A DNA stretch of 64,000 nucleotides from assembly GCF_022174665.1 (NCBI RefSeq), contig NZ_CP076562.1, positions 1 to 64,000 of the forward strand. Reading direction: 5' to 3'. Shown here piece after piece: positions 12,870-35,002 of the stretch. The notes beneath the pieces were generated by a model. That model was not told where the DNA came from, made no database searches, and was given only the letters and a program-made list of their open reading frames with translations. The stretch is from Eubacterium sp. MSJ-33 (GTDB lineage Bacteria; Bacillota; Clostridia; Lachnospirales; Lachnospiraceae). The translations under genes were made by a program, and so were the position numbers. Positions within the stretch are counted from its first letter, which is position 1; every line of letters starts with the position of its first letter.

Positions 12870-14633
12870 ATGGTAAATTTCAAAGAAGACGAGCAGTTAA
12901 AAACATTGAACCACTCTTGTGCACATTTGATGGCGCAGGCAATCAAGCACCTGTACCCACAGGCAAAATTCTGGGTAGGACCGGTTGTTGCAGAAGGCTT
13001 CTACTATGACGTAGACCTCGGCGATGACGTAATCCGCGATGAGGATATCGCAGCAATCGAGAAGGAAATGAAGAAGGTTGCAAAGTCCGGCAAGAAGATC
13101 ATCCGCAAGGAGATCTCCAAAGAAGAAGCAATGGAGATGTTCAAGGATGATGAGTACAAGCTGGATCTGATCTCCAATCTGGAAGATGGAACGATTTCCT
13201 GCTATGAGCAGGGCGACTTTACAGACCTCTGCCGTGGACCTCACGTAGATAATGTAAAGCTCTGCCGTAACTTCAAGCTGCTCCGTCACTCTGGCGCTTA
13301 TTGGAAGGGCGACAGTAACAACAAGGTATTGCAGAGAATCTATGGTGTCTGCTTCCCGACAGCAGAAGAGCTGGAGGCACATCTGAAGCTTCTCGAAGAG
13401 GCAAAGGAGAGAGACCACAGAAAGATTGGTAAGGACATGCAGTTGTTCATGGTAGACGATCTCGTTGGACGTGGACTTCCGATGTTCCTTCCAAAGGGCT
13501 ATACAATCTGGCAGGAGCTGGAGAACTACATCAAGGACAAGGAGCGTAAGCTTGGTTACCTGCACGTTATGACACCATGTGTTGGTACGGTAAATCTGTA
13601 CAAAACATCCGGTCACTGGGATCACTACAAGGAAAACATGTTCCCGGCCATGGACGTAGAGGGTGAGTCTTTCGTTCTTCGTCCGATGAACTGCCCACAT
13701 CATATGATGATTTATGCAAACCGTATGCATTCTTATAAAGACCTCCCAATCCGTATTGGTGAGATCGCACACGACTTCCGTTTCGAGGCGAGTGGTACTT
13801 TGAAGGGTATCGAGCGAGGCAGACACTTCTGTCAGAACGATGCGCATTTGTTCGTGACACCGGAGCAGATCGAGGATGAATTCTCAAAGGTTGTTGACCT
13901 GATCTTCAGCACCTATAAGGATTTCGGTATCACAGATTACCGCTGCGTCCTGTCACTGCGTGATCCGGAGAACAAGGTAAAATACCATGATGATGACGAG
14001 ATGTGGAACACAGCTGAAGATGCACTTCGTAAGGTATTGAACGACCTTGGTATCGAGTATACAGAGGAGATCGGTGAGGCTGCTTTCTACGGACCGAAGC
14101 TTGATGTAAATGTAAAGCCGGCTGTCGGAAATGAATATACACTTTCTACCTGCCAGCTTGACTTCTGCCTGCCAGCGAAGTTCCAGCTTACTTATATTGA
14201 CAAGGACGGCGAGAAGAAGACACCGGTTGTATTGCACAGAGCAATCCTCGGTTCTCTGGATCGTTTCATGGCATACATTCTGGAGGAGACAAAGGGTAAC
14301 CTTCCAACATGGTTAGCGCCGGTTCAGGTAAAGGTTATGCCGGTTAAGACAGACAACGAAGAACTGATGGCATATGCACATAAGGTTGTGGATGCACTGG
14401 ATGCAAAGAATGTTCGTGTCGAGTTAGACGACAGAGCAGAGAAGCTTGGCTACCGTATGCGTGAAGGTCAGGTGGAGAAGGTTCCATATCTTCTGGTTCT
14501 TGGATTCAATGAGGTAGAGAATAACACGGTATCTTACAGACTGCATGGTCAGGCAGATACAACTGTTGTTGGTCTGGATGAATTTGTTGCGAAGATTGAG
14601 GAAGAGATCAAGACAAAGGCGAAAAACAGATAA
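12870..14633 (+). CDS. thrS: threonine--tRNA ligase (short form lacking N-terminal TGS/editing extension)
   Basis: HxxxH-like SCAHLMAQA, class II motifs (FRFEASG, GPKLD), C-terminal anticodon-binding domain; RBS aaaaaggag. Confidence 0.9.
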   Translation: MVNFKEDEQLKTLNHSCAHLMAQAIKHLYPQAKFWVGPVVAEGFYYDVDLGDDVIRDEDIAAIEKEMKKVAKSGKKIIRKEISKEEAMEMFKDDEYKLDLISNLEDGTISCYEQGDFTDLCRGPHVDNVKLCRNFKLLRHSGAYWKGDSNNKVLQRIYGVCFPTAEELEAHLKLLEEAKERDHRKIGKDMQLFMVDDLVGRGLPMFLPKGYTIWQELENYIKDKERKLGYLHVMTPCVGTVNLYKTSGHWDHYKENMFPAMDVEGESFVLRPMNCPHHMMIYANRMHSYKDLPIRIGEIAHDFRFEASGTLKGIERGRHFCQNDAHLFVTPEQIEDEFSKVVDLIFSTYKDFGITDYRCVLSLRDPENKVKYHDDDEMWNTAEDALRKVLNDLGIEYTEEIGEAAFYGPKLDVNVKPAVGNEYTLSTCQLDFCLPAKFQLTYIDKDGEKKTPVVLHRAILGSLDRFMAYILEETKGNLPTWLAPVQVKVMPVKTDNEELMAYAHKVVDALDAKNVRVELDDRAEKLGYRMREGQVEKVPYLLVLGFNEVENNTVSYRLHGQADTTVVGLDEFVAKIEEEIKTKAKNR

Positions 14634-16070: not shown

Positions 16071-16100
16071 AGATTTTTATTCTGTAGTAGGTAATGGATT

Positions 16101-16259
16101 ATGATAATGGAAAATGATGAATTTGTAATTCCAGAACAGTATCGGAAAATGTCCGTTACTGAATTAGATGCAGAAGCAAATAAAATGTTAAAAGAGATAC
16201 AACAAGGGAAACGAATAATTCGAGATAAGAAAAAAGCTGCACAGGGAAGAATGAAATAG
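16101..16259 (+). CDS. hypothetical small protein (52 aa), doubtful
   Basis: ORF MIMENDEFVIPEQYRKMSVTELDAEANKMLKEIQQGKRIIRDKKKAAQGRMK between cls and a terminator; weak RBS. Confidence 0.2.
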   Translation: MIMENDEFVIPEQYRKMSVTELDAEANKMLKEIQQGKRIIRDKKKAAQGRMK

Positions 16260-16272
16260 TTTTCTATGTTGA

Positions 16273-16980
<708 letters not shown>

Positions 16981-17082: not shown

Positions 17083-17111
17083 TTGATAAATATAGATGCA
17101 TATGCTAGAAT
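17083..17111 (+). promoter_or_regulatory. candidate promoter TTGATA-17-TAGAAT for island operon
   Basis: Between the two GTATAC repeats, ~55 nt upstream of RHH gene. Confidence 0.4.
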
Positions 17112-17143: not shown

Positions 17144-17165
17144 ATTATGAAAAAGGGTGATGAAC

Positions 17166-17357
17166 ATGGCGGAAAAAGTTTTAAGAATCGAGGCGAAAAG
17201 ATATAGAGAGGACTCGGTCGTGATGTCTGCGCGCATACCAAAAGATATGTTACAGGATATTGATTTTGTAGCAAAGGAGTCCGGCAGAACACGGAACGAG
17301 ATTGTAACTATGTTTTTAGACTTCGCATTAAAAAATACAGAGATAATAGAAAAATAA
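17166..17357 (+). CDS. ribbon-helix-helix (CopG/Arc/MetJ-like) DNA-binding protein
   Basis: 63 aa; ...RIPKDMLQDIDFVAKESGRTRNEIV... RHH beta-strand + two helices pattern; start chosen at ATG 17166 for RBS spacing. Confidence 0.6.
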   Translation: MAEKVLRIEAKRYREDSVVMSARIPKDMLQDIDFVAKESGRTRNEIVTMFLDFALKNTEIIEK

Positions 17358-17377: not shown

Positions 17378-19246
17378 ATGTCAAAATTTGCGATAGCATG
17401 TCCAAACTGTGGAAAAAGTGTAGAAGCAAGTACAAAGTTATTTGCTAAAAAGAAAATAAAGTGCACATGCGGATATAGAATTAATGTTCATACGGACAGA
17501 ATGATGACGACAAAATGTTCACATTGTGGTAATCAGGTTGTATTTGATCAATCAAAAGGAAAAAGAGCAGTTTGCCCAGTATGTAGACAAAAAATTAATA
17601 CGGTAAATGATACAGTTGAGGAGTTCGCATGTGAACAATGTGGCATTCGCCTTATCACAGCAAGGAATGCATCGACCTATGTCTGCCCGGTTTGTGATTA
17701 TGAGAATAACGTGCAGGAGCGCGTGATGGCAGAGAAAATCAAGACAGATGGACTGGCAAGTATCATAAAATACGAGGGCGATAATAACACATTTATCTGG
17801 AAGCATCCAATCGAAGATTTTAATTTCGGTTCCCAGTTGATTGTACATGAGAGTCAGGAGGCAATCTTCTTTAAGGATGGGCAGGCTCTCGATCTGTTCG
17901 GGCCCGGGCGTTATACGTTGGAGACACAGCAGCTTCCACTTTTGGAGAAAGTGTATTCGTTACCGACTGACACACAGGGGACATTTCATTCCGAGGTTTA
18001 TTTCATCAACAAGACCGTCCAGATGTCTATCAAATGGGGAACCCCGGATAAGGTTCGGTTCATTGATCCGTTAACAGGAACGCCGCTTGCACTTGGTGCT
18101 TCTGGTGAGATGAATATTCAGGTGTCAAACTCCAGAAAATTATTGTTGAAATTAATAGGCACTATGAAAGGTATTTCGTGGGAAGAAGGACCGGGATTTA
18201 CGAAGTCCCTGCAGGCGTCCTTCCGTCCGCTGATTGCAAATGCGGTCAAGACCAATCTTTCTTCTGTTATCAAGAATGAAGCGATTGATATTCTGGAAAT
18301 CGATGAGAAGCTGGATTTGATATCGGATAATCTGCGAGAAAAAATCCTTCCGGGATTCGAGGAATATGGTTTGACGATACCGCAGTTTTATGTGACCAGT
18401 GTTGTTCTGCCGGAGGATGATCCGAATTTCAAGCGTATTCGGGAATTGCATACAATCACACTTCAGACACGGGTCATTCAGGCAGAAGCAACTGTGAAAA
18501 CTGCACAAGCACAGAGCGAAACACAATATCGGACTGCACAGGAGCAGAGCAAAGCCGCAATCGAGGTAGCACGACGAGAAGCAGAATTGCAGCGTCAGAC
18601 AACAGAGACAGAAATTGCAAAAAGAGCGGCAGAACGCCGCGTAATCGAAGCGCAGGCAGAAGCACAGGCACAACGGATGGCAGGATTGACGGAAGCTGAA
18701 ATCATGAAGGCAAAAGGCTATTCGCAGAAGGATGTACTTCAGGCAGATGTTCAGAAAGCATATGCCGAAGGCATCGGCAACATGGGACCGGCTATTTCTG
18801 CCGGCGGTGGAAGTGGCGTGTTGGGAGACATGCTTGGTTTAGGTGTTGGTATGGCTGCGGCAAGTGCGATTGCTCCACAGATTGGAGGGATGATGCAGGG
18901 CTTTGCAAATCCATCTATGATGCAGGGAGGTGTAACCAACCAGACGATCACACAGGCAGATGCTGATAATCAGGCAGCTTTCTTGTCAAGAAATACGTGG
19001 GATTGTACATGCGGACAGACAGGGAATACAGGAAACTTTTGCAGCAACTGTGGGGCGAAGAAACCGCAGGCAGAACAACCGGACACATGGGATTGTGCAT
19101 GTGGGAAGACAGGAAATACCGGTAAATTCTGTAGTAATTGTGGAGCAAAAAAAACGGAAGCAGAAACAAGCTGGGATTGCACATGTGGACAGACAGGAAA
19201 TACAGGTAACTTCTGTAATAACTGTGGAAAGAAGCGGGGTGAATAG
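17378..19246 (+). CDS. SPFH/band-7 (COG4260-like) protein with N-terminal triple Zn-ribbons and C-terminal triple Zn-ribbon repeats
   Basis: N-term CPNCG..CTCG, CSHCG..CPVC, CEQCG..CPVCDYEN. Core IKYEGDNNTFIWKHPIEDFNFGSQLIVHESQEAIFFKDGQALDLFGPGRYTLETQQLP typical of COG4260 SPFH proteins. Ala/Gln/Glu coiled coil. Gly/Met-rich linker. 3x TWDC[TA]CG[QK]TGNTG[NK]FC[SN]NCG[AK]KK. Confidence 0.7.
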   Translation: MSKFAIACPNCGKSVEASTKLFAKKKIKCTCGYRINVHTDRMMTTKCSHCGNQVVFDQSKGKRAVCPVCRQKINTVNDTVEEFACEQCGIRLITARNASTYVCPVCDYENNVQERVMAEKIKTDGLASIIKYEGDNNTFIWKHPIEDFNFGSQLIVHESQEAIFFKDGQALDLFGPGRYTLETQQLPLLEKVYSLPTDTQGTFHSEVYFINKTVQMSIKWGTPDKVRFIDPLTGTPLALGASGEMNIQVSNSRKLLLKLIGTMKGISWEEGPGFTKSLQASFRPLIANAVKTNLSSVIKNEAIDILEIDEKLDLISDNLREKILPGFEEYGLTIPQFYVTSVVLPEDDPNFKRIRELHTITLQTRVIQAEATVKTAQAQSETQYRTAQEQSKAAIEVARREAELQRQTTETEIAKRAAERRVIEAQAEAQAQRMAGLTEAEIMKAKGYSQKDVLQADVQKAYAEGIGNMGPAISAGGGSGVLGDMLGLGVGMAAASAIAPQIGGMMQGFANPSMMQGGVTNQTITQADADNQAAFLSRNTWDCTCGQTGNTGNFCSNCGAKKPQAEQPDTWDCACGKTGNTGKFCSNCGAKKTEAETSWDCTCGQTGNTGNFCNNCGKKRGE

Positions 19247-19248
19247 GT

Positions 19249-19938
19249 ATGAACAAAAAAGATCAGAGAGGATACATCGTCCTTGGAATTATATTTGTAG
19301 TATTTACTGTAGTTGCATTTGCAGTACCTTTTTCTAAGAAGGCAGGATTCTGGCTTGGGTATGTATTTGGAATAATAGCGATTGCGTTCCAATTATATAT
19401 TTTCAAAATTTCTTTTGCGCAGGGAGAGGATGTAAAGAGTAAGTTTTACGGATTCCCAATCGCACGTATTGGCGTGATTTATCTGGGTGCACAAATGTTA
19501 TTCAGCATATTGGAGATGGCAACAGCAAAATTCCTTTTACCATGGGTGGCAGTCCTTGTGAATATAGTCATGTTAGCGTTTGCTCTCGTTGGATGCATCG
19601 CTGCAGATATCATGCGGGATGAAATCGTGCGACAGGATGTAAAGCTGGAAAAAGATGTAACCAATATGCGCAGACTCCAATCGTTGTCAGCGTCTCTGGT
19701 AGGACTCTGCCAGGATGAAAATGCAAAGAAAACACTGCAGGATATAGCGGATGAATTCAAGTACAGTGATCCGGTATCATCCGAACAGACAAAGGAAATG
19801 GAAGAGGATATGAAGATGCAGTTAGAGGAACTGCAAAATGCAGTATTGGAAGGGGATGTAAGCAATGTTCTAATGCTATGTGTAAACCTGAAAAATCGCC
19901 TGAATGAGAGAAATCAAATGTGTGCGATGAGTAAGTGA
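19249..19938 (+). CDS. membrane protein, 4 TM + cytoplasmic helical tail (unknown family)
   Basis: Four hydrophobic helices in first 120 aa; 2-bp gap from SPFH gene (translational coupling). Confidence 0.6.
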   Translation: MNKKDQRGYIVLGIIFVVFTVVAFAVPFSKKAGFWLGYVFGIIAIAFQLYIFKISFAQGEDVKSKFYGFPIARIGVIYLGAQMLFSILEMATAKFLLPWVAVLVNIVMLAFALVGCIAADIMRDEIVRQDVKLEKDVTNMRRLQSLSASLVGLCQDENAKKTLQDIADEFKYSDPVSSEQTKEMEEDMKMQLEELQNAVLEGDVSNVLMLCVNLKNRLNERNQMCAMSK

Positions 19939-19982: not shown

Positions 19983-21527
19983 ATGGCACAGATGATAACA
20001 TTTAAATGCAAAATATGTGGAGGTAATCTTACTGTTTCACCGGGTGAGTATTTAGCTGAGTGCGAATATTGTGGAACAACAATGACTATTCCGAATATAG
20101 ACTCTGAAAGAAAAGCACGTATGTTTGATCGTGCAAATCAATATAGAATTAATTGTGAATTTGATAAGGCGTATGAGTCGTTTAAGGTTATTGCGGATGA
20201 GGATGAAACAGAGGCTGAAGCATATTGGGGAATGGTTCTATCAGAGTATGGAATTGAATATGTAGAAGACCCGGAAACACATAGGAGGAAACCGACATGT
20301 CATAGGGCACATTTAGAGTCCATAAAAAAATGCGTTAATTTTCAAATGGCCTGTAAATATGCGGAAAAAGAAAATGTAGTCTGGTATCAAGAAGAAGCGG
20401 AGATAATAGATAATATTTCTAAAAGAATAGCAGGTATCGGAGCAAAGGAAGAACCGTACGATATTTTTATATGTTACAAAGAGACAGATGATATTACAAA
20501 TGAACGAACAGAAGATAGCGTATTGGCTCAATCAATTTATGATGAATTGGTAAAAAGAAACTATCGAGTATTTTTTTCAAGGATATCGTTAGAAGAAAAG
20601 CTGGGTAAAGATTATGAGCCATATATTTATTCTGCATTGGTGAGCGCACCAGTTATGATAGTTGTGACTACTAGCAACGAACATTGTCAGGCTGTTTGGG
20701 TAAAAAATGAGTGGTCAAGATATATTGGATTTATGCATGAGGATGATTCAAAAACCATAATTCCGGTCTACAAGAAAATGTCGCCATATGATTTACCAGA
20801 AGAATTATCAAGATTTCAGGCTCAGGACATGGACAAAATTGGAGCCATCCAGGATTTGGTGCATGCAGTAGAGAAGCTGCTGGGAAATGCAAAAAATAAT
20901 GATTCAGAATCTGTAAAAAATCTTAGAAATGAAATAGAAACACGAAATAGGAAAACAAAGAAAATCATTGTAATTGGTACAATTGCAATCATGTTAGGTG
21001 CTCTTGCTATTGGTATAATTTGGAAAGTTAGAAATAAAAAAATAAACTCAACTACAGACAGCCAGTATGTCATGACTGAACAAGATGAAATAGAGCAGTA
21101 TTATTCAGTAATGCAGGAAGCTTATAAAAATGGAGATTATAACGATGCTGTTTCACAGTGGCTTGAAGCAACGGTTGTTTTGAATGAATATGGGGGAGTT
21201 CAGGGAAAGGAGTATAAGGAGACTAAAGAAATTAAGGAAACAGAAGTGAGATTGTTTGATGAATACATGAAGGAACAGAAAGAAGAATATATGAGTAGAA
21301 ATAGCGATGAGTATTATTACTCTAATTTATATGATGTTTTATATTGTCTATCATACCACAAGCATGTGTTAGACGAATCAGAAATTTTTAATGGTGATGA
21401 AAATGAGAAAAATTTCTATATTAAGATTTTGAAAAAAGCGGCTCAAGAGGAAATTGAAGGTTACAAATATGATTCGCAACAAAGGCAACCATACCAGGAT
21501 ATATATGACTATTTAGACAATATGTAA
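19983..21527 (+). CDS. Zn-ribbon + helical module + TIR domain + single TM + C-terminal extracytoplasmic domain protein
   Basis: N-term FKCKICGG...CEYCG Zn-ribbon. TIR signature at aa 157-285: YDIFICYKETDD..., ...SALVSAPVMIVVTT, ...AVWVKNEWSRY with conserved Glu. TM KIIVIGTIAIMLGALAIGIIWKV at aa 327-349. Confidence 0.7.
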   Translation: MAQMITFKCKICGGNLTVSPGEYLAECEYCGTTMTIPNIDSERKARMFDRANQYRINCEFDKAYESFKVIADEDETEAEAYWGMVLSEYGIEYVEDPETHRRKPTCHRAHLESIKKCVNFQMACKYAEKENVVWYQEEAEIIDNISKRIAGIGAKEEPYDIFICYKETDDITNERTEDSVLAQSIYDELVKRNYRVFFSRISLEEKLGKDYEPYIYSALVSAPVMIVVTTSNEHCQAVWVKNEWSRYIGFMHEDDSKTIIPVYKKMSPYDLPEELSRFQAQDMDKIGAIQDLVHAVEKLLGNAKNNDSESVKNLRNEIETRNRKTKKIIVIGTIAIMLGALAIGIIWKVRNKKINSTTDSQYVMTEQDEIEQYYSVMQEAYKNGDYNDAVSQWLEATVVLNEYGGVQGKEYKETKEIKETEVRLFDEYMKEQKEEYMSRNSDEYYYSNLYDVLYCLSYHKHVLDESEIFNGDENEKNFYIKILKKAAQEEIEGYKYDSQQRQPYQDIYDYLDNM

Positions 21528-21561: not shown

Positions 21562-23994
21562 ATGGCAAATTATTGTATTTATGAAGTAAAAGTAATTGGA
21601 AGTGAAAAGGCATGTTTAATGGTGTTTGAATCAATGCCATATATGGATTATAACCAGATAGAGACTAAGAATCAGAAGAATGAATTAACAGAGCTTATGT
21701 TTGCAGGCAACTGTAAGTGGTCCGTTAATTTTAAAGTGAGAGATGTATTGTCAAAGGTGGATGTTGATTCTTTTGATGAAACATTAATTCAGGAAAAAGC
21801 TTCTGATTATTACCAATATTCATTAAGAGCAAAGTCTGAAGCATTTGAATGTGAAATATTGGTACATTATTGGTCTGAGGAATCTGGGTTTGATCAGTTT
21901 GACCATTATAAAAATGGAGAAATTATAAAAAAGAGAAAAATAAAATTCAACTCTAAGAAACAAAATCGATTTGACTGGAACAAGACAGAATTCGTCGGAC
22001 ACGAAGGAGAATATGATGAGTCTGTGGATGGTGAGGAACAAGATGAAAAATATGTAAAATTTATAACGGATACTATTAATAAATTGGCTGGAAAGACAGA
22101 TGTGTCAATTGATACAAAAAGAGATAAAAATATGAGTACAGACATGGAAAAAGTAGAAAATGCTATGTATCAATGGACGTTTACACAAGGAAATACAGTG
22201 AACTTGAATGAATGGACGATAGGAATTCCGGATGGATTTATGAAAATAAATTCAGAAGAGATGATACCTACAACACACAAAAAAAGACCATTTGAATTGG
22301 TACCTATCAAAGACAAAGAAAATCCTGAATGTGCGACGGTGCGTATTTTGCCAGGTCTTATGAAAAGCGTAGGAAATATAGGAGTTTCAGATATGTACCA
22401 TCCGCTTGCAAAATTGGGTATTGCAGCAATTGTAGCGTCTAATGGTGCTAAAGACTATTTGAAATCTATGGGTGTTGCTTCAAGAGTATTTTATACAGCT
22501 TGGGATAATTCTTATGCATATATACTTGTTCAAGATGCGTTATTTGATACAGTTGATTATCATTGCACGGTATTGGCAAATGGAAAGATCCAAATCTTGG
22601 GCGTGAGGACAGGCGTTAGCGATGTAGATGATTTTGATGAAGATAGAAAAAAACAGTTAGAGCAGTCAATTATTGAATGGTTACATACAATGCAATCTAA
22701 TAAATGTTCAGTGACTGTTCCAACAGTAAAATTTGAAGATGATGATTGTTTTGATGAGGTTATGAAAGGGAAAAGCCTGAAAAAATTTGAAACTGCTGTA
22801 CAACAAGCGCATGAGGAATATCGTGTAGCAATGTTAGGAAAAATGCATGTTGTAAAGTATGAGTTTGAAAGTGGGGTTGGAGTCGGAAAACAAAATGTAA
22901 AGGAAACGACAAAAGAAGTTCTATTGGAAGGAATGAAGGTACGGGAGTTTTATGCAGAAAAGGCAAATGATTTCGTGCAAAGAATACAGCAAGCGGAGAT
23001 AACGGGGGATACTTTTATAAAAATTCTAAAAAAATTGTTGGAATTAAAGAAGGATGATGAGCTAGCAAAAGTAACAATCGATAATCGTGTGGTTAAGGTG
23101 GATGTTCCAGACAGAGTAAAAGAAATAGAAAAAGAATGGGAGAAGATACTTCGTTCTGAGGAAGAGAAAAAGACAAGGGAACTTCAAAAAAAGAGAGAAA
23201 TAGAGGAAGCGAAAAGAAAAACTGCTTTGGAAAAAGAAGCTGCTGAAAAGAAAGCCAGAATGGAAAAAGAAGTAGCCGCGTGGACGGAAGAGGTTGAGAA
23301 AATAAAGAAAGATCGCGAAGCAAATCGTATAGAGAAAATAGCATCATATGAAGATGTGGCCAAAATTAGAAAGCAACATGCAGAGGAAGTTCGAACAACA
23401 CAACTGGATAGCACAAACGGCATGATTCAGGATTTGAAGAACCGTTTATCTTTGGATACTATAGAACTTGGACAATTGGGAGTGTTAAAGTTTCACAGAA
23501 GAAAAGAATTGCAAAATTCTATTGAACAATTGACAAGAGAATTGCAGGAAAAAGAACATGTCCTTATAACAATTGAAAAGGAATATGAAAAGGAAATAAA
23601 AAATGCTGATGAAGAATACACCCGGAAAGTAAATGGCCTTTCCGCGTATCTGGATGAAAAGTATCAAGTGCCAGAAAGTCCAATGGTGGTTGAAGAAAGA
23701 AAGCAAAGAGAAGAAGAAAAAGAAAAAAAAGAACGAAAAATAAAAGAGGATCCTAATTACGAAATAAAGTTAGAGATAATAGAACTTTTGGAGAGCGGTG
23801 AACCGATGATGTGTACTGAAGTGGCCAAAGAACTTGATATCTCTATAAATAAAGCAGTTGCTCTCATGTCGCAGCTTGCTGGTTCGGCGGATATGGAAAA
23901 ACGAGAACCGGGAAAGATATATCCGCTCATTCGTTTTGCAGATGGAAAGAGGATTAAATTTAAGATTAATCCGGAGTGGGATTCAGAGTTATAA
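21562..23994 (+). CDS. large coiled-coil protein (810 aa) with C-terminal winged-helix
   Basis: ~250-aa Glu/Lys-rich heptad region; C-terminal LEIIELLESGEPMMCTEVAKELDISINKAVALMSQL wHTH-like; unknown N-terminal globular domains. Confidence 0.6.
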   Translation: MANYCIYEVKVIGSEKACLMVFESMPYMDYNQIETKNQKNELTELMFAGNCKWSVNFKVRDVLSKVDVDSFDETLIQEKASDYYQYSLRAKSEAFECEILVHYWSEESGFDQFDHYKNGEIIKKRKIKFNSKKQNRFDWNKTEFVGHEGEYDESVDGEEQDEKYVKFITDTINKLAGKTDVSIDTKRDKNMSTDMEKVENAMYQWTFTQGNTVNLNEWTIGIPDGFMKINSEEMIPTTHKKRPFELVPIKDKENPECATVRILPGLMKSVGNIGVSDMYHPLAKLGIAAIVASNGAKDYLKSMGVASRVFYTAWDNSYAYILVQDALFDTVDYHCTVLANGKIQILGVRTGVSDVDDFDEDRKKQLEQSIIEWLHTMQSNKCSVTVPTVKFEDDDCFDEVMKGKSLKKFETAVQQAHEEYRVAMLGKMHVVKYEFESGVGVGKQNVKETTKEVLLEGMKVREFYAEKANDFVQRIQQAEITGDTFIKILKKLLELKKDDELAKVTIDNRVVKVDVPDRVKEIEKEWEKILRSEEEKKTRELQKKREIEEAKRKTALEKEAAEKKARMEKEVAAWTEEVEKIKKDREANRIEKIASYEDVAKIRKQHAEEVRTTQLDSTNGMIQDLKNRLSLDTIELGQLGVLKFHRRKELQNSIEQLTRELQEKEHVLITIEKEYEKEIKNADEEYTRKVNGLSAYLDEKYQVPESPMVVEERKQREEEKEKKERKIKEDPNYEIKLEIIELLESGEPMMCTEVAKELDISINKAVALMSQLAGSADMEKREPGKIYPLIRFADGKRIKFKINPEWDSEL

Positions 23995-24026
23995 ATATAG
24001 TGAAGGATATGGGAGGCGAAAAGCAA

Positions 24027-24145
24027 TGAGTTGTCCAAGATGTGGTGGAAAAATGGATAGTGGTATTTGCGAGGAATGTGGGTTCCCCATTACTCGTATT
24101 TGGGAACATGAAAATTATTATATGCTTTTATTTAGTGAAATATAA
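24027..24145 (+). CDS. 39-aa zinc-ribbon mini-protein
   Basis: MSCPRCGGKMDSGICEECGFPITRIWEHENYYMLLFSEI; strong RBS gggaggcgaaaagcaATG; the longer 23858 track ORF overlaps the preceding gene. Confidence 0.4.
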
Positions 24146-24165: not shown

Positions 24166-27100
24166 ATGAAAATTAGAACGGATTTTGTGACAAATTCAAG
24201 TAGTAGTTCTTTTGTTGTTGAAATTTCTTTTACTTTGAAGGATGGCAGGGTGTTGAGGCGTTGTGAAGTAGGAGGGGAGGATGGAAGAGATTTATATGTG
24301 TGTGCGAGTCCAAGACAACTTGGTCTCTGTAAGAATGTTGAGGAAATGATTACGCTGTTAAATGATAGCGTAAAAGTCGAGGAGCGCTTTGATGACTGTA
24401 ATAGAAAGAAATTTGTTGATACAAATTTTATACAGCAACTTGAGTCAATAAAAGAAATGAGCGAAATTGAAAAAATTACAATTTCGGGAAATGAACTAAA
24501 TTATGAAGAGTATGAGAGAATTTATAGATATAATCTTGATACAGAAGAGTATACCTGCGAAATTTTTGGAGAGGAATTTGAAAGTGAAGGATCAGGAGGA
24601 AATCTGGAATTTTGTGACGGATTTTTGGCAACACGTCAGGATGGATATGATGATGGGGAGTTTTTGCGTGTTGAAGATTTACCAATAATTGTTCCGTTGG
24701 AAGAAAGTAGTGATAAAGAACAGGTAAGTTTATTGGAAAATGTCAGAGAAGGTGAAAAACTTATTCTGAAAAATGAATTTACGGATGATTTATTTGACCC
24801 TGTAAAAATAGGCGTTTTTAATAAAAAAAATCAGCTGCTAGGGTATCTTTGCGAATTGGACTATTCGTTAATAGCAATAGCAAGAGCATTAGAAGATGTT
24901 GATGCTTGTGTCGATTCTGTCGCACCATTATCTGGTAGAAAGAAAAATGAAGAATATTCTTTAATGGATGTGAGAATTACATCAAAGGAAGGAAATAACC
25001 CATTTGCAGAAGGTTATAAAATAAAATTTGATGTAAGTGAATTATCTGAAGATGAGAAAAAGTTATTTAATGAAATGATAGAGCACTGGAGAAATCAGTA
25101 TGACAAAGAAGAAGTAACTATGAGCTGGATTTTTAAAATAAATCCACCAGAGTATTTTGTGACTTGTGATGAATTTGATGAAAAAACAGCAGAAGAAACA
25201 AAAAGATTTTTACAAGAAGCAGGTAGCAGAAGTAGCTTAAAAAAGTTACATGCAACATTTTGGGGAAATCTGAATTTTGAAAAAAGAAAATTTCGGCAGT
25301 ATAACTATCTGCTGGATAGAGGATTCTTAGATTGTGAAAAAACAATAGAAGAAAAGAAAGATGAATGCATTACTAATCAGTCATCTTCGTTGGAAGAAAA
25401 AATAGAAAAAGCAGTCGAGAAAGTGAGCAACTTGAAAAAAATGTCTAATACCATGTTTTATGATAGTAGGCATAGTGTGAATATGGATTTTCAAAAAGGA
25501 AAGATTGTTGAATTTGGTAATTATAGACAAGGAAAAAATGGAGTAGTTAAACCTTTACAATGGGTTGTTTTGGAGCGAAAGGGGAATGGTGCAAAACTTC
25601 TTTCATTAAAAGGAATTGAAACCTTGCCATACAATGTCAAAGATGGAAAAACAAGCTGGGAGAAATGCTTTCTTCGTTCGTGGTTGAACACAGAATTTTA
25701 TAATGCTGCATTTTCTTCTGAAGAGGCAGAAAGCATTATTTTATCGGATGTGGTTGCGGTTAGGCACCCCCAATATTTAACTTCACCAGGAAATGATACG
25801 AAAGATAAAATTTTTCTTTTAAATTATCAGGAGGCTGAGAACGTTGGGAAAAGGTGGAAAAAAACATATTTAACGGAATGGGCAGTTCAAAATGATGACT
25901 TGTTTAAAAAAAATTATGGCATAAATAATTATGCACTGTGGTGGTTGAGAACTCCGGCTAGTGCAACGAAAAGAAGTTGTGTGATGGGAAAATATATTTC
26001 TGGGATAGATGTTCGAGATGTTGATGGTATAGCGGTTAGACCTGCGATTTGGATAAATCTTAATTCAGAATATTTTGGTGGATCATTTGAAGTAATGGTA
26101 AAGGATGCTGAGAAAGAATTGTCTGTTGATGAGGTAATTGAAAAAATAAAAGAAAAATACAATACGAAAACAAAACCGACATCTACAATAGAATTTGATA
26201 TTCAAAATGTAGAATACACTAAGCAATTAAATGAATTAAAAAAGAAATGTGAAAATGAATTAGAAATTACATACAGAAATTATTTAATTCAAATGGGAGT
26301 TTTAGGAGACAAGGTAAAATTAATTGATACATACGATCCGTCAGAAATGATCAAGACCTTAAAAGAAAAATATAACAACAGTGAATTAAAACCGAAAACA
26401 TTTGTTGAGTTGATGGATAAAAATCCGGAATTCCGCGAAGAATTAAATACTTTACGTTCTGTATCTCAAAAAAAGTATGGAGATACAGCTGTTGACTATT
26501 TGAAAAAACAGGGGATAATTGCAACTTCGGAGGAAATAGCAGCTATCAGACAAGAAAAAATTAAAAAAATAGTGGTGGAAACAGCAGAACGGAAAGCAGA
26601 AATAAGAAGAAAGGAACGATTAAGGAAAGTTGATAGGATACAAATACAAGATGCAAAATTGCAAAATAAAGTAGATAAATTAATTTATGGCCTGAATGAA
26701 TTATATCCTGAGCATAAAGTATTTTCTTTGGATAGTTTGGATGGCACTCTGCGGGAAAATTTATCAAAGTATGCAAAACAAATAGGATATTTATCTGCTG
26801 ACGATATGCTTTTGGCATATGATTTTGTGAAGATTGATGCTGATGAGGTTAAAGAAATCCGCCCTAATGTATTACATAAACCGGGAAATGAACCAGAAAT
26901 AATCAAGGGTAAGGTGCAAAGTATATTAAGACGATTAGAAGAATATTATCCGGATAAAAAAATAGAGAGGAGTATTCAGTTGGATCATAAAAAACTAAGC
27001 CAAAGTATTACTGGGGCATATCTTTGGCTTGGATATAACAATCAAGGGGAATTCCTGAAGGCTTACGGATATGAAAATAATATAAAATATAATGAAAATG

Positions 27101-27318
27101 GGCGTGGTGGAGGAAGACCATCTTCGACAAATGTAGAAGAGCTTATTATGGAATTAAAGAAAAGAAGTGGAGGAAATCCATATTCTGGATTTAAGGAATT
27201 AAAAGAGAAGAATCCGGATCTGGCAGGAAAGTTAAAAACTATATCTAACAAAGCAAATAGTTTGTTAGGAATGCCGTTCGTAAAGTATTTAAAGCAAGAG
27301 GGAATCGTGCGTGATTAA
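24166..27318 (+). CDS. 1050-aa protein: Ser-run N-terminal module (MKIRTDFVTNSSSSSF), HIRAN-like segment, DUF6273-like domain, long helical C-terminus
   Basis: DUF6273-like block GKIVEFGNYRQ...PLQWVVLE...LLSLKGIETLPYN...SWEKCFLRSWLNTEFYNAAFSSEE...YALWWLRTPAS...VRPAIWINL; HIRAN-like GEKLILKNEFTDDLFDPVKIGVFNKKNQLLGYL. Confidence 0.65.
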   Translation: MKIRTDFVTNSSSSSFVVEISFTLKDGRVLRRCEVGGEDGRDLYVCASPRQLGLCKNVEEMITLLNDSVKVEERFDDCNRKKFVDTNFIQQLESIKEMSEIEKITISGNELNYEEYERIYRYNLDTEEYTCEIFGEEFESEGSGGNLEFCDGFLATRQDGYDDGEFLRVEDLPIIVPLEESSDKEQVSLLENVREGEKLILKNEFTDDLFDPVKIGVFNKKNQLLGYLCELDYSLIAIARALEDVDACVDSVAPLSGRKKNEEYSLMDVRITSKEGNNPFAEGYKIKFDVSELSEDEKKLFNEMIEHWRNQYDKEEVTMSWIFKINPPEYFVTCDEFDEKTAEETKRFLQEAGSRSSLKKLHATFWGNLNFEKRKFRQYNYLLDRGFLDCEKTIEEKKDECITNQSSSLEEKIEKAVEKVSNLKKMSNTMFYDSRHSVNMDFQKGKIVEFGNYRQGKNGVVKPLQWVVLERKGNGAKLLSLKGIETLPYNVKDGKTSWEKCFLRSWLNTEFYNAAFSSEEAESIILSDVVAVRHPQYLTSPGNDTKDKIFLLNYQEAENVGKRWKKTYLTEWAVQNDDLFKKNYGINNYALWWLRTPASATKRSCVMGKYISGIDVRDVDGIAVRPAIWINLNSEYFGGSFEVMVKDAEKELSVDEVIEKIKEKYNTKTKPTSTIEFDIQNVEYTKQLNELKKKCENELEITYRNYLIQMGVLGDKVKLIDTYDPSEMIKTLKEKYNNSELKPKTFVELMDKNPEFREELNTLRSVSQKKYGDTAVDYLKKQGIIATSEEIAAIRQEKIKKIVVETAERKAEIRRKERLRKVDRIQIQDAKLQNKVDKLIYGLNELYPEHKVFSLDSLDGTLRENLSKYAKQIGYLSADDMLLAYDFVKIDADEVKEIRPNVLHKPGNEPEIIKGKVQSILRRLEEYYPDKKIERSIQLDHKKLSQSITGAYLWLGYNNQGEFLKAYGYENNIKYNENGRGGGRPSSTNVEELIMELKKRSGGNPYSGFKELKEKNPDLAGKLKTISNKANSLLGMPFVKYLKQEGIVRD

Positions 27319-27353: not shown

Positions 27354-28451
27354 GTGAAATATATAATCAGGGATAAAAAATATCGTTTTAAATCAGCGTT
27401 TGATATGGAAACAGGTGCATATGTAAGAACCGGTATTTTAGATGAAAATGGGGAGGATACAGGGGTAGATCCTTTTATGGCGTCTTTTCCGCATCTTATT
27501 GATGTGGGTGTAATGGGACATTGCACTCATGGAAAAACAGGTTTGTGTGCAAGAGCAGGTATAGGCTGTTATCAGAATGGTTTGTATATCAATCAACCCA
27601 ATATGAGTGTAGAAGATTTCCGATGGATTGCGGAACAGTGTAAGGGTAGATGTAATCAATTAGCGCTTGGGGGACGTGGGGATCCAGACCAACATGAACA
27701 ATTTGAAGAACTACTAATGATTAGTAGAGAAAATATGTTAGTTCCTAATTTTACAACTTCTGGTTATGGAATGACAACACAGATTGCGTCCTTGTGTAAA
27801 AAGTATTGTGGCGCGGTTGCTGTTAGTTGGTATAGGAATGAGTATACAATAGAGGCAATAAATATGTTGTTGGAAGCGGGTGTTAAAACAAATATACATT
27901 ATGTGTTGGGAAATAATAGTATTAACGAGGCAATTGAGAGGTTATCAACTGATGATTTCCCGAAAGGTATTAATGCAGTTATTTTTCTTTTACATAAGCC
28001 CGCAGGGCAGGGAACGAAAGATAACATGTTGGCTGTTGGGGATCCGCGAGTAAAGCGTTTTTTTGAGCAGATTGAAAAAAAACATCCGTTTAAGGTAGGA
28101 ATGGATAGCTGCAATGTGCCGGGAGCAATTAATTTTTGTAATAAAATCATTCCGGAATCGTTAGACACATGCGAGGGAGGCCGATATAGCTGCTATATTG
28201 GTGCAGATATGATTATGGTTCCGTGTAGCTTTGATCAACAGAAAATATATGGGGTGTCTCTAAGAAAAATGGATATAACAGATGCTTGGAATAGCATACA
28301 ATTCAAAAACTTTAGAGACAAAATGAAAAATGTCTGTCCGGACTGCAATAAAAAAGCGTTGTGCATGGGAGGATGTCCCCTTATGCCGGAAATTGTATTT
28401 TGCAACAGAAAGGAAAGAAAATTGTATAAAGGAGAAGACAATGAAAATTAG
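27354..28451 (+). CDS. radical SAM/SPASM-like Fe-S protein with non-canonical N-terminal Cys motif (CX7CX6C)
   Basis: GTG start with RBS agagagg. GHCTHGKTGLCARAGIGC where CX3CX2C is expected. GGRGDP at GGE-motif position. NFTTSGYG at ribose-motif position. C-terminal Cys clusters CNVPG..FCNK..C.GG..C and CPDCNKKALCMGGCP typical of SPASM/twitch. Confidence 0.45.
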   Translation: MKYIIRDKKYRFKSAFDMETGAYVRTGILDENGEDTGVDPFMASFPHLIDVGVMGHCTHGKTGLCARAGIGCYQNGLYINQPNMSVEDFRWIAEQCKGRCNQLALGGRGDPDQHEQFEELLMISRENMLVPNFTTSGYGMTTQIASLCKKYCGAVAVSWYRNEYTIEAINMLLEAGVKTNIHYVLGNNSINEAIERLSTDDFPKGINAVIFLLHKPAGQGTKDNMLAVGDPRVKRFFEQIEKKHPFKVGMDSCNVPGAINFCNKIIPESLDTCEGGRYSCYIGADMIMVPCSFDQQKIYGVSLRKMDITDAWNSIQFKNFRDKMKNVCPDCNKKALCMGGCPLMPEIVFCNRKERKLYKGEDNEN

Positions 28452-28647: not shown

Positions 28648-30378
28648 ATGCAGGAAAATTATGAGTTAGTACAACGAGGTTTTCGAAAACTGGTAGTTAC
28701 GTTTTCTGGTTATATTGGAAGGGAATTCAGTAAAAAATATAAAAATGCATGGTGGGACGAAGTGTTAGAGGCATTATCAGACCAGCATGATTTGCCAAGT
28801 GATGGTGAATATGGATATCTGATAGATTCATTAGATATTTTAAATTGTATTCGCTTATTAGAACGCAGGTGGAAAGAAGTTTTTCAAGATGAGTTACCTT
28901 TGAACTGTCGTACATGGGCAAAAGAACTTAAGGGGATTAGGAATAAAGTCGCTCATATTGGTCAGCAGGATTTGGATCAGCCCATAGCAGAACGTGCACT
29001 TGACACGATGCGTTTGCTATGTAAAGAATTGGATTCGGATGATGCGGCAGAAATTGAAAAAATATATGAAGAGGTTAGAAAAAGAGCAAATGATTATCGA
29101 CCGGTGACGCGTATTTTTGAGGGAGTAGAGCAACCGGCTTCAGAATCTAATCGCGGTGAATTGATGAAAGATAGTCTTCTTCAGCTTGTCGGAACGGATG
29201 TGGTTCAGAAAACAACGTTGACAAGGAAGGTAACATATGGAGGGAAAACAGTTATTTACCCGGTGTATCGGATTCGCTTAGACTATCTTTTTTATAATGA
29301 TCAGAATGATCGAATAGCAACCTGGATTACCCGATATCAGGCTGAAAATGGCGAAGATTCTTTGCTTGAGCTAGGGAGAGAAGAATACAATAATGTTATT
29401 GAAACATTTATATATGAAAGCAATCCGGATGCAATATCAAAAACACAAAAAAATATTTTGTTGGTCGGACAACGTGAGCCGGGAGTTACTTTATCAGATG
29501 GGCGTATTGTGGATGGAAACCGAAGATACACTTGTTTGCGAAGAATTCAACGTGAGAAAATAGGACCTGTTTATTTTGAAACAGTAATTATGGATATGGA
29601 TATCCGGGAAGACAAGAAACAGATAAAATTATTGGAACTTGCAATACAGCACGGAGAAGAAAAAAAGGTAGACTATGATTTGATTGATTATGCGATTGGT
29701 ACATATAGGGATATTGTGCAGACAAAGCTGCTTACATTGGACGAATACGCAACAGGGACAAATGAAAAACCGGCAGATGTAAAAAATCGAATTGAAATTG
29801 CAGAAATTATTAGTGAGTTCCTAAAGTATATAAAGCTTCCGGAGCAATATCACATTGCGAGGGAATATCAGGTTTATAGTTTGTTTCAGGAGATGATGGC
29901 TCCGCTTAAAAAGTTGAATGAATCAGAAAAGGCGCAACTAAAGAAAATAACATTTAATAATGCTATGATGAAAGTTATACCTGACCAGAGAAAATTTATA
30001 CGAGATATTAAAGGACTGGTTAAAAATGGCACCTATGAATCATATTTTGAAGAACAAATGAATTGGATTAATGTGATTCGGGACAAGTTTGATATGTGCG
30101 AAGTTCATTCTAAAAGTGATATAGACAAGTTTGCAGAAGAAAATGCGAAGATTGCAGAGGAATTGCAAATATCGATGGAAAGAGCTCTGCAAAAATCCCG
30201 GTCAATAATATTAAAAAATAAACCGGTAGAAAATGTGTCAAAAAGTATTACTCTTTTAACAGAGGTGGATTCCAGACTGTTTGGAAGGTTGGAAGAGGAA
30301 GAGAAAAAGCAATTAAAAGACGAATTGGATGAACTTGCAAGAATTGTAGATGTGTTTCGGGAAAAACTTGTGAGGTAG
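28648..30378 (+). CDS. HEPN (Swt1-like, Rx4H) N-terminal domain fused to ParB/Srx-like (DUF262/DGQHR-type) domain
   Basis: GIRNKVAH at 28939-28956 at the end of a ~110-aa helical domain with conserved W/R pattern; downstream IVDGNRRYTCLRRI matches the ParB/DUF262 DG(Q/N)(Q/H)R motif. Confidence 0.5.
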   Translation: MQENYELVQRGFRKLVVTFSGYIGREFSKKYKNAWWDEVLEALSDQHDLPSDGEYGYLIDSLDILNCIRLLERRWKEVFQDELPLNCRTWAKELKGIRNKVAHIGQQDLDQPIAERALDTMRLLCKELDSDDAAEIEKIYEEVRKRANDYRPVTRIFEGVEQPASESNRGELMKDSLLQLVGTDVVQKTTLTRKVTYGGKTVIYPVYRIRLDYLFYNDQNDRIATWITRYQAENGEDSLLELGREEYNNVIETFIYESNPDAISKTQKNILLVGQREPGVTLSDGRIVDGNRRYTCLRRIQREKIGPVYFETVIMDMDIREDKKQIKLLELAIQHGEEKKVDYDLIDYAIGTYRDIVQTKLLTLDEYATGTNEKPADVKNRIEIAEIISEFLKYIKLPEQYHIAREYQVYSLFQEMMAPLKKLNESEKAQLKKITFNNAMMKVIPDQRKFIRDIKGLVKNGTYESYFEEQMNWINVIRDKFDMCEVHSKSDIDKFAEENAKIAEELQISMERALQKSRSIILKNKPVENVSKSITLLTEVDSRLFGRLEEEEKKQLKDELDELARIVDVFREKLVR

Positions 30379-33302: not shown

Positions 33303-33307
33303 TTATA

Positions 33308-33808
33308 ATGGTTCAGGCAAAAAAACAGTTTCTTGATGAAGTAGAAAAACTTCATGAAAGAAATGAACTATCCAAGAAAGTAGAAGCAACATATTTTGAA
33401 CCGGGAATGATGGAGTATCTGGAACAATCAGAAGGTATATATGAAGAGGGTACAGGGAATGTTATTCTTCGTTTTGAAGTTATGGGAACACGTTATGATG
33501 GTCGGACAGAGCAGATTGAAAAGTTAAAACCGGGGGACTTGATACAAATAGTCAGAGAAAAAGAAAATCCTTACAACTCTAATAATTTTACTTTGCTGAC
33601 AAAACGAGGACAAAATGTGGGGAATATGCCGGCTAATTTATGTAACGCGATTGCACCATTGTATGATGAAGGAAATTTAAAAATCATGGATGCCTCTGTT
33701 AGCTATGTGGAACCTATTTCCAAGAGAAATCGTCATGCCAAGCAAGCTATCTTATTTGTGGAATTAAAGGCAAAACTGAATTCCGCCCTGAATTCCGCCC
33801 CATGCTAG
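33308..33808 (+). CDS. HIRAN domain protein
   Basis: FEVMGTRYDGRTEQIEKLKPGDLIQIVREKENPYNSNNFTLLTKRGQNVGNMPANLCNAIAPLYDEG matches HIRAN (3'-DNA-end binding) pattern; C-terminal 12-bp tandem duplication ctgaattccgcc x2 (LNSALNSA). Confidence 0.55.
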   Translation: MVQAKKQFLDEVEKLHERNELSKKVEATYFEPGMMEYLEQSEGIYEEGTGNVILRFEVMGTRYDGRTEQIEKLKPGDLIQIVREKENPYNSNNFTLLTKRGQNVGNMPANLCNAIAPLYDEGNLKIMDASVSYVEPISKRNRHAKQAILFVELKAKLNSALNSAPC

Positions 33809-33865: not shown

Positions 33866-35002
33866 GTGGGATATATCTTAAAATTATTCGATACAGATCT
33901 TTTGAAGTTTGATGTGATTGAGAACTTGGCAGATCCTGTACTTAAGATAACATGGATGGATGAATCGCGGAAGGCACTGTTTCCACTTGGAATGGAAGTG
34001 TCAGACGACGGAATTGCAAGTTTTATTCGGCATCGTTGTATACCGAAGAACCGGGCATATGTGAATGCGTTTCTGGCAAAAAATGGACTTAGTGCAAATC
34101 GCCCTATGGATGTGATTACGGTATGTAAAGGCCTTTCTCTGAATGATTCGTATTGGATTACAGAAGAGGATTCGGTGCAGAGTTTTGCATCCAGCAACCT
34201 GTACGAGAATCGTTTCAGTCGTTTGCTTGCGTGGACGGCATTTACCGGATATGGCAGTAGTGTGCGGGCAACGTTTTTATCTTCACCGGAATTTACGACG
34301 AATGGTATGCTGCCGAAATGCTGGCGCAGAATGGAGAATAAAATATATCTCTATAAAGGAGCGACTTCCGGTGCAGCCAATACTGGAATGGAACCGTATT
34401 CCGAATTGTATGCGTATGAGATTGGTGCGCATGCCGGATTTTCGGTAATCCCTTATAAAATAAGCGTATGGAAGGGAAATGTATGCTCTGTATGTGAGCT
34501 TTTTACAAGCAAAGATCTGGCATATGTTCCGGCTGGGTATATTATAAAAAAAGGTGGCATGGACGCTGTCCGTAAGTTTTATGGAACATTAGGTGCAGAA
34601 TTTGTGGATGCGTTGGATGAGATGTTGGTATTTGATGCGATTGTCTGCAATACAGATCGCCATTTCGGAAACTTTGGCGTGCTTGTGGACAGTCACACAA
34701 ATCAGATTGCAGCACCGGCGCCATTGTTTGATCATGGCAATGCACTTTTTAATTTGGCGGGTGAAGAAAACTGGGAGAATGAGAACATATTGCAGGCGTA
34801 TATAGACACGTTATTTCCTTGTGTCTATGATGATTTTATGGAGGAAGCGAAGCGTGTGTTGAAACCATCAATTCGGGAAAAGGTAAAAAAGCTTTTAACA
34901 TTCGAAGTGAAAAAGATGGGAAGAACGAATTATGACAGTAAAAAATTGAAGCTTATGACAAAGATTATTCAGAAGCGCGCAAGAGCACTTTTGGAATCAT
35001 AA
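33866..35002 (+). CDS. HipA-like Ser/Thr kinase domain protein (no adjacent HipB-type HTH gene)
   Basis: HipA_C motifs VFDAIVCNTDRHFGNFGVL and APLFDHGNAL; GTG start. Confidence 0.6.
   Translation: MGYILKLFDTDLLKFDVIENLADPVLKITWMDESRKALFPLGMEVSDDGIASFIRHRCIPKNRAYVNAFLAKNGLSANRPMDVITVCKGLSLNDSYWITEEDSVQSFASSNLYENRFSRLLAWTAFTGYGSSVRATFLSSPEFTTNGMLPKCWRRMENKIYLYKGATSGAANTGMEPYSELYAYEIGAHAGFSVIPYKISVWKGNVCSVCELFTSKDLAYVPAGYIIKKGGMDAVRKFYGTLGAEFVDALDEMLVFDAIVCNTDRHFGNFGVLVDSHTNQIAAPAPLFDHGNALFNLAGEENWENENILQAYIDTLFPCVYDDFMEEAKRVLKPSIREKVKKLLTFEVKKMGRTNYDSKKLKLMTKIIQKRARALLES

Follow-up and report, generated by a model that had tools for sequence, protein, structure and literature searches.

Characterised bacterial TIR immunity senses infection from inside the cell. 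In a survey of E. coli, the membrane features of Toll-like receptors (TLRs) seemed to be absent from bacterial TIR systems (PMC11350192). A gene of Eubacterium sp. MSJ-33 raises the question of whether a bacterial TIR protein can be arranged as a receptor, with its TIR domain inside the cell, a single transmembrane (TM) helix, and a further domain outside. The gene encodes a protein of 514 amino acids (aa) and lies in the first 64,000 nucleotides of contig NZ_CP076562.1, which were analyzed as one stretch (hereafter, the window). A preliminary description made from the sequence had proposed the receptor-like layout. Examination of the protein, its relatives, and their gene neighborhoods pointed to a type II membrane TIR protein with a folded outer domain. 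It also revealed what the preliminary description had overlooked and what proved the more interesting part, namely the size of the family, the swapping of ectodomains within it, and a conserved operon that includes an SPFH gene.

The open reading frame begins with ATG, downstream of a ribosome-binding-like GGGAG motif, and ends with TAA. Its product is identical (100%) to WP_238298482.1 of Eubacterium sp. MSJ-33, where it is annotated just as 'TIR domain-containing protein'. Pfam and hydropathy analysis located every element listed in the preliminary description: a Zn-ribbon, a TIR domain, one TM helix, and a Tyr/Glu-rich C-terminal domain (C-domain) of about 165 aa (Table 1). Pfam TIR_2 (PF13676) matched aa 161-285 with 42.7 bits against a gathering cut-off of 28 (E 9.1e-11). 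In a family alignment of 72 homologues, the Zn-ribbon cysteines C12, C27, and C30 were invariant and C9 nearly so; Pfam gave a weak Zn-ribbon match at aa 7-46, and a Pfam search of the N-terminal domain at E <= 10 a weak match to Zn_Ribbon_TF. The adjoining helical domain gave no Pfam match at that threshold, and the alignment revealed an invariant T105-C106-H107-R108 motif within it (nt 20295-20306). The TM segment, IIVIGTIAIMLGALAIGIIW, is the sole strong hydropathy peak, the rest of the protein reaching at most 1.6. The last 165 residues are strongly acidic (pI 4.5), with Tyr and Glu accounting for 21 and 23 of them, respectively.

An AlphaFold model of the full protein, built on the 72 homologues, had a mean pLDDT of 83 overall and above 90 over aa 1-300. 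The model comprises a four-stranded Zn-ribbon (aa 5-35), a helical domain with a beta-hairpin (aa 42-155), a predicted flavodoxin-like TIR fold (aa 161-300), one long helix containing the TM segment (aa 310-349), and an all-helical C-domain after aa 365. When the family alignment was searched as a profile against the PDB, the sole match was a low-complexity artefact (huntingtin polyQ).

In the NAD+-cleaving TIRs of plants and of SARM1, the Glu of the W-x-x-x-E position is the catalytic residue; SARM1 has a very similar W-V-H-K-E around E642. Residues W239, N242, E243, and W244 of the Eubacterium protein were invariant across the 72 homologues, with the Glu in this position. E243 (GAG codon at 20709-20711) also aligned with the Glu of the SxWCxxEL motif in the plant TIRs AtTIR and L6 (3jrn, 3ozi). 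Since this catalytic-type Glu is invariant, the TIR domain is most likely an NAD+-cleaving enzyme rather than a mere adaptor.

A search of 5.8 billion proteins, in which 8,000 candidates were scored, gave at least 7,953 significant relatives. They share the first ~330 residues at about 50-63% identity, and the named or sourced members come from Clostridia (Eubacterium sp. MSJ-33, Lachnospiraceae) and from human-gut metagenomes. Topology was counted in the best 120 of the at least 7,953 relatives. The TM helix of the preliminary description was borne out, as a hydrophobic helix occupies the same position, at ~320-420 and mostly at 325-345, in 119 of the 120. Lys and Arg were then counted in the 15 residues before and the 15 after the first TM, and the N-side flank was the richer in 117 of 119 homologues (mean 7.3 versus 2.9 in single-TM forms and 5.4 versus 1.6 in polytopic forms). 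About half of these best homologues continue with four further TM segments, giving five, an odd number, in 49 of the 55 proteins of this polytopic branch, and in many of them SH3_3 domains follow. SH3_3-type domains usually occur in extracytoplasmic cell-wall-binding proteins. They were found after the last TM in ~32 of the 120 homologues, and in P0101 directly behind a single TM. No N-terminal signal peptide was detected in the 326-aa N-terminal part, which holds the Cys4 Zn-ribbon and an NAD-using type of TIR domain, a content that would be at home in the cytoplasm alone. Together, the charge bias, the odd TM count, the SH3_3 domains, the absence of a signal peptide, and the Zn-ribbon point to N-in/C-out as the only sensible orientation. 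The 514-aa protein is therefore very probably a type II single-pass membrane protein, in keeping with the earlier placement of the TIR domain in the cytoplasm and the C-domain outside, and this predicted in vivo topology rests mainly on the family level.

The C-domain, when folded alone from its single sequence, formed a compact helical bundle in which about six helices are the main ones (pLDDT 86, pTM 0.82). An exhaustive phmmer search of these 165 residues over 1.84 billion representative proteins matched their own cluster alone, so that the domain is a sequence orphan, although the cytoplasmic module to which it is joined is among the more widespread ones. Pfam at E <= 10 gave noise alone, and fold searches gave generic alpha/alpha repeats only (14-3-3, HEAT/ARM, and TPR proteins such as PlcR and Rap), with no specific assignment. 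Neither Pfam nor the fold searches revealed a leucine-rich-repeat (LRR) or immunoglobulin (Ig) match. Within the 90% cluster, identity in the C-domain falls to ~81%, while the N-domain and TIR keep 98-100%. The ratio of nonsynonymous to synonymous substitution rates (dN/dS), taken from one sequence pair, the window gene and a conspecific allele in locus L010, was 0.02 for the N-domain, 0 for the TIR domain, and 0.30 for the C-domain (dN 0.097, dS 0.325). The C-domain is thus constrained, yet more than 10-fold more relaxed than the cytoplasmic part. Both the predicted fold and this ratio are those of a true domain, as the preliminary description had supposed, rather than of a disordered tail.

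Comparison across the family revealed how variable this outer part is. The N-terminal modules of 119 homologues formed one BLAST cluster, and their post-TM domains at least 11 unrelated clusters. Besides the SH3_3 domains, the recognizable ectodomains among the best 120 were TPR types (~12) and DUF6273 in three proteins (P0014, P0023, P0071). DUF6273 is reported to be a C-type-lectin-like fold that is targeted by diversity-generating retroelements in phage receptor-binding proteins (PMC10743442).

Eight independent loci were obtained from exact-protein look-ups of seven diverse homologues. All eight hold a Band_7_1 (SPFH) gene, a Pfam-less polytopic gene, and one to six tandem TIR_2-TM genes, and a ribbon-helix-helix (RHH) or helix-turn-helix (HTH) gene often comes first: a 63-aa RHH_1 gene in L009 and L015/L016, and an HTH_3 gene in L003 and L019. 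L017 is a minimal three-gene version, and L015 has six TIR-TM paralogues and an AbiH/SIR2_2-like gene. The Pfam-less polytopic proteins of different loci are homologous: the 229-aa polytopic partner in the window matched the membrane and C-terminal half of 431-463-aa forms (E 1e-5 to 1e-18). An unbiased sample of 80 metagenomic loci was also drawn from at least 557 confirmed ones, and counts were made in the 33 having at least 3 kb on both sides. The SPFH gene was present in 30 of these and the polytopic partner in 29, every copy found having the orientation of the TIR gene; the metagenomic loci carried one to five TIR-TM paralogues each. Only three relatives were found in IMG/VR (2.9 million viral contigs) against the at least 557 metagenomic loci, which indicates a chromosomal family, and a phage-borne family was rejected on this ground. 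PHROGs held no phage family for the TIR protein.

In the window, the cluster runs from the RHH gene through the SPFH, polytopic, and TIR-TM genes and is tightly spaced; the gaps between adjacent genes, up to the 810-aa coiled-coil gene that follows, are 20, 2, 44, and 34 nt, the SPFH gene and the polytopic partner being 2 nt apart. No terminator-like site was found on the + strand between the best promoter match and ~34553, except for a weak 5-bp-stem match at 19463-19476 inside the 4-TM gene. The SPFH protein consists of N-terminal Zn-ribbons, the SPFH domain, a G/M/Q-rich linker, and three C-terminal WDCxCGxTGNTGxFCxNCG Zn-ribbon repeats. It has no TM, its maximum hydropathy of 1.64 falling in the Gly/Met-rich linker. 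The cluster lies in a low-GC island at ~16-34 kb (33-38% GC versus 44-49% in the flanks) in which all genes are on one strand. HEPN_Swt1, HIRAN, and HipA-like genes are found in the same island, and other loci have AbiH or SIR2_2-like genes.

These features were compared with those of known TIR systems. The sole NCBIfam match of the TIR protein, to Thoeris ThcB4, scored 27 bits, far below the cut-off of 220. Unlike Thoeris, the locus has no adjoining ThsA-type effector (SIR2, Macro, SLOG), and no Thoeris model scored above cut-off (Pfam, PADLOC, NCBIfam). It also differs from CBASS, Pycsar, and type III CRISPR TIR effectors in that scans with Pfam, NCBIfam, and PADLOC revealed no adjoining cyclase and no fused SAVED, STING, or CARF domain. 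The TIR defence proteins ThsB, SpbK, TIR-SAVED, and TIR-STING are soluble, whereas the 514-aa protein is predicted to be membrane-integral and has an SPFH scaffold and a polytopic membrane protein as its partners. One E. coli anti-phage TIR system does contain a TM element (PMC11350192); no SPFH partner or variable ectodomains are reported for such systems, a distinction that is drawn from their published description. Dictyostelium TirC is a toxic TIR NADase that is held in check by an N-terminal TM helix (PMC13142454), and the likeness is confined to a TIR NADase plus a TM segment, as TirC has the N-terminal helix only and no ectodomain. A literature search with little coverage of subscription journals turned up no account of a bacterial TIR family that is linked to SPFH proteins or bears ectodomains.

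The preliminary description had likened the protein to TLRs, with a sensor outside and a TIR domain inside. Hydropathy, the charge bias of the family, and the odd TM count do predict a single-pass protein with a cytoplasmic TIR domain and an outer domain. The chain order is reversed: the window protein is type II (TIR, TM, ectodomain), whereas TLR and IL-1 receptors are type I. Those receptors carry LRR or Ig domains, which the window ectodomain lacks, and unlike TLRs, the window protein has a Zn-ribbon and a helical domain ahead of the TIR domain. The TIRs of TLRs act as adaptor scaffolds, whereas the TIR domain here has retained the catalytic-type Glu and probably acts as an enzyme. The likeness is one of analogy and not of membership, with no sign of common descent beyond the TIR domain, and any sensor role of the outer domain would be a further step.

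The above comparisons lead us to a proposal that we hold at about even probability, in which the type II membrane TIR protein would serve as the subunit for output and specificity in an undescribed but conserved membrane system of gut Firmicutes. This system would be made up of an RHH or HTH regulator, a YdjI-like SPFH scaffold, the polytopic partner, and one to six tandem TIR-TM paralogues that differ mainly behind the TM, where they have SH3_3, DUF6273, TPR, or orphan domains, or nothing. Its most likely function would be that of an envelope-surveillance NADase system. At rest, an SPFH-organized assembly might keep the TIR domains inactive, or separate from one another, on the cytoplasmic side of the membrane, with the SPFH protein and polytopic partner organizing or restraining the TIR module there. 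An event at the envelope, such as phage adsorption or injection, cell-wall damage, or contact with a foreign surface molecule, would be detected by either the ectodomain or the membrane partner, or by the two together. TIR NADases need self-association for activation, so that clustering would switch on NAD+ cleavage. The TM-anchored TIRs would thus cluster or be released, and the cleavage of NAD+ or a signal derived from ADP-ribose might then cause growth arrest or abortive infection. The variable outer domains would confer specificity.

A bolder form of the proposal, which we put forward tentatively and think rather unlikely, is that these proteins are true outside-in TIR receptors of gut Firmicutes, in which the conserved cytoplasmic Zn-ribbon-TIR NADase module is coupled through the membrane to interchangeable ectodomains (SH3b, C-type-lectin-like, TPR, and lineage-specific orphans). 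With up to six paralogues and an SPFH scaffold, they would detect phage or other threats at the cell surface, either ahead of entry or in the course of it. If so, they would be a bacterial functional counterpart to the TLR repertoire, and a new defence class whose trigger lies outside the cell. A TIR enzyme joined to a variable outer domain would give bacteria a means of registering surface threats. The receptor-like membrane architecture and the set of partners would be new, within the known kind of TIR immunity and NADase signaling, and the architecture would be the closest bacterial parallel to TLRs. The pairing with SPFH proteins would give a concrete function to the poorly understood flotillin-like scaffolds of bacteria, and it echoes the links of SPFH proteins to immune cell death reported in plants. 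Were the ectodomains to set specificity, the tandem arrays would provide a model for receptor diversification by domain swapping.

Several observations weigh against the surveillance proposal. The positive-inside argument of the preliminary description, which cited RNRKTKK ahead of the TM helix, holds for the family but scarcely for the window protein itself, in which KVRNKK behind the helix offsets that motif and leaves 6 versus 4 Lys/Arg, a bias that barely favors N-in. Cysteine depletion would be expected for exported domains in many Firmicutes, and none was observed (1.11% versus 1.19%, p = 0.38); the comparison is uninformative, and strict anaerobes may simply not keep Cys out of exported domains. 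The ectodomain dN/dS of 0.30, from its single pair, represents relaxed purifying rather than demonstrated positive selection. In 19 of 119 homologues the chain stops right after the last TM and there is no ectodomain at all, so that the core function does not require one. DUF6273 is found as well in the 1050-aa neighbor of the TIR-TM gene, which apparently lacks a TM; the domain is thus no reliable marker for an outside location, and its value as such evidence was downgraded accordingly. PADLOC-DB v2.0.0 returned 0 families for six cluster proteins at E <= 0.01, and the L003, L017, and L019 clusters lie amid housekeeping genes and not in defence islands.

The main rival takes its lead from the homologues that stop at the membrane. 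It holds that the TM and C-domain only tether the TIR domain to the membrane or cell wall, anchoring or restraining it, with the ectodomain an anchor or modulator and not a receptor. Sensing would then take place in the cell or the membrane, through the Zn-ribbon and helical domain, the SPFH scaffold, or the polytopic partner, and the triggers might be loss of membrane potential, entry of phage DNA, or holin action. The conservation of the N-terminal domain, among the most conserved parts of the protein with a dN/dS of 0.02 and many invariant residues, is as expected for contact with a partner or signal. SH3_3 domains, being of a wall-binding type, suit anchoring, and TirC provides a precedent for a TM helix that restrains a toxic TIR NADase (PMC13142454). 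A simple tether leaves unexplained, however, why tandem paralogues of one operon bear different ectodomains (SH3_3, DUF6273, TPR, and orphans) and why a folded orphan domain should be under purifying selection, and we consider this explanation possible but doubtful.

The SPFH protein suggests another explanation, that of a housekeeping envelope-stress module. We retrieved the Bacillus ydjGHI genes by means of a published primer sequence and found the SPFH protein to be a YdjI homologue (BLASTP E 2e-14 to Bacillus stercoris YdjI). The two share the Band_7_1 domain, a low-complexity G/M/Q-rich linker, and a C-terminal Zn-ribbon, and like YdjI, the SPFH protein lacks a TM and its gene lies beside genes for membrane proteins. 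One of these, the TIR-TM protein, resembles YdjG in starting with a Zn-ribbon and in having its TM behind the cytoplasmic domain. In B. subtilis, YdjI lacks a membrane anchor and depends on YdjG and YdjH for its localization (PMC8581546), and YdjG has Zn-ribbons followed by a cytoplasmic domain and a TM (PMC11237479). The cluster could accordingly be a variant of PspA-YdjGHI in which the TIR-TM protein serves as anchor or adaptor of the SPFH protein and the TIR domain is a protein-interaction domain or a metabolic, NAD-linked regulator. The location of some loci amid housekeeping genes and the lack of a PADLOC match agree with such a role, as does a weak similarity of the TIR protein to YdjG. 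That similarity is confined to the Zn-ribbon (E 8e-4 over 58 aa), and where YdjG has two Zn-ribbons, an NTF2-like domain, and a TM, the middle domain of the window protein is TIR and not NTF2-like. The 229-aa partner had no similarity to the TPM-domain protein YdjH, and no PspA/IM30 or TPM match was found among the cluster genes and neighbors scanned. Homology to YdjG and YdjH, suggested by a similar N-terminal sequence, was borne out only in part, the YdjI relation being real, that of YdjG limited to the Zn-ribbon, and that of YdjH nil. Tandem paralogue arrays with variable ectodomains further set the TIR-TM cluster apart. The invariant catalytic-type Glu favors an enzymatic over an adaptor TIR, and a copy number of 1 to 6, swapped C-domains, and a low-GC island with HEPN or AbiH neighbors are typical of conflict systems. 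By these sequence comparisons, the system resembles a YdjI-type scaffold with membrane anchors and is not a member of the phage-shock-protein (PSP) operon family, and we regard the housekeeping role as improbable. A mention of 'Tir' in a PSP paper refers to the CesT/Tir chaperone and not to a TIR domain.

Finally, that there is no true TM, that the TIR domain is exported like pathogen TIR effectors, or that the C-domain is a disordered low-complexity tail could be argued from the biased composition of the C-domain (Tyr, Glu, Lys), the small charge asymmetry of the protein itself, and a word-indexed C-domain search that was empty even for its own cluster (superseded by the exhaustive phmmer search), but is effectively excluded by a 20-residue hydrophobic core (Kyte-Doolittle 2.8) kept in position across the family, a 326-aa N-terminal part with a Zn-ribbon and no signal peptide, a C-domain that is confidently predicted to fold and has a dN/dS of 0.30 and not ~1, and recognized folded domains at the same position in homologues.

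Table 1. Features of the TIR-TM gene, its cluster, and the adjoining genes (window coordinates; all on the + strand)
Feature	Position	Strand	Size or residues	Basis or remarks
Best sigma-70-like promoter match	17083..17111	+		TTGATA-17-TAGAAT, extended TG; consensus match only
Putative RHH/Arc-like regulator, first gene of cluster	17157..17357	+	66 aa	Weak Pfam Arc match
YdjI-like SPFH (Band_7_1) protein	17378..19246	+	622 aa	Pfam E 3.7e-35
Polytopic partner	19249..19938	+	229 aa	4 predicted TMs, ~110-aa C-terminal helical domain; no Pfam match
TIR-TM gene	19983..21527	+	514 aa	Zn-ribbon, helical domain, TIR, TM, ectodomain
Cys4 Zn-ribbon	19995..20087	+	aa 5-35	Cys conservation; four short strands in model
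Helical and beta-hairpin domain	20088..20447	+	aa 36-155	Many invariant columns; pLDDT 88-97
TIR domain	20451..20882	+	aa 157-300	Pfam, alignment, structure comparison
Basic juxtamembrane helix	20883..20963	+	aa 301-327	Ends RNRKTKK
Single TM helix	20964..21023	+	aa 328-347	Kyte-Doolittle mean 2.8
Predicted extracytoplasmic domain	21030..21524	+	aa 350-514	Acidic Tyr/Glu-rich helical repeat, ~six main helices
Coiled-coil protein	21562-23994	+	810 aa	
DUF6273 protein	24166-27318	+	1050 aa	
Radical-SAM/SPASM protein	27354-28451	+		Weak matches to peptide and cofactor maturases
HEPN_Swt1 protein	28648-30378	+	576 aa	
Protein with three RNA polymerase alpha C-terminal domain copies and sigma-70 region 4	30384-33302	+	972 aa	
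HIRAN protein	33281-33808	+		
HipA-like protein	33866-35002	+		

The genes for the 810-aa coiled-coil and 1050-aa DUF6273 proteins are kept in the same species (L001, L010) and fall outside the core seen in other species, and their membership in the system is uncertain. The 1050-aa protein has neither a predicted TM nor a signal peptide. Its counterpart in L001 (14183-17334) is called as two genes, one of 224 aa and one of 820 aa; a frameshift, a stop codon, or a difference in assembly may account for the split. Between the two genes in the window is a small Zn-ribbon open reading frame, MSCPRCGGKMDSGICEECG... (24029-24145, in ORF 23858-24145), which is a 39-aa gene in L001. No obvious precursor peptide was identified for the radical-SAM/SPASM protein. 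The architecture of the 972-aa protein is unusual; its gene begins 5 nt behind the HEPN_Swt1 gene and overlaps the HIRAN gene.

Upstream of the cluster, a serine recombinase is encoded at 16381-16980 (Pfam Resolvase, E 1e-30), between a PLD-family gene and the RHH gene. Within the 16074-16980 region, the conspecific contig L001 has just 283 bp (6638-6921) in place of 830 bp of the window, and alignment resumes in the 3' end of the resolvase gene. A resolvase gene and an RHH gene are also found directly upstream of the TIR-TM array of L009, and the resolvase may be a sign that the cluster is mobile or controlled by inversion. The island is 97.3% identical to a conspecific contig, and its flanks are 95.5% identical or less.

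The three C-terminal Zn-ribbon repeats of the SPFH protein are tandem and near-identical (WDCxCGxTGNTGxFCxNCGxKK; 18990-19246, aa ~538-622), and several CxxC pairs precede the SPFH domain, far more than in Bacillus YdjI. In most other species (L003, L009, L015, L017, and L019), the polytopic partner, at 431-463 aa, is about twice as long as the 229-aa version of the window. These longer forms start with a signal-anchor-like TM and include a further segment of ~225 aa that is predicted to be extracytoplasmic, and so may also carry an outside domain that the window version lacks. In L006, DUF6273 is fused to the polytopic partner. The same locus encodes (8122-9963) a 613-aa protein in which a Zn-ribbon is directly followed by a TIR-like 'DVYICYEE' strand, with no Pfam TIR match, and L009 encodes a 195-aa Zn-ribbon protein (14013-14600); Pfam TIR_2 may not capture the whole family.

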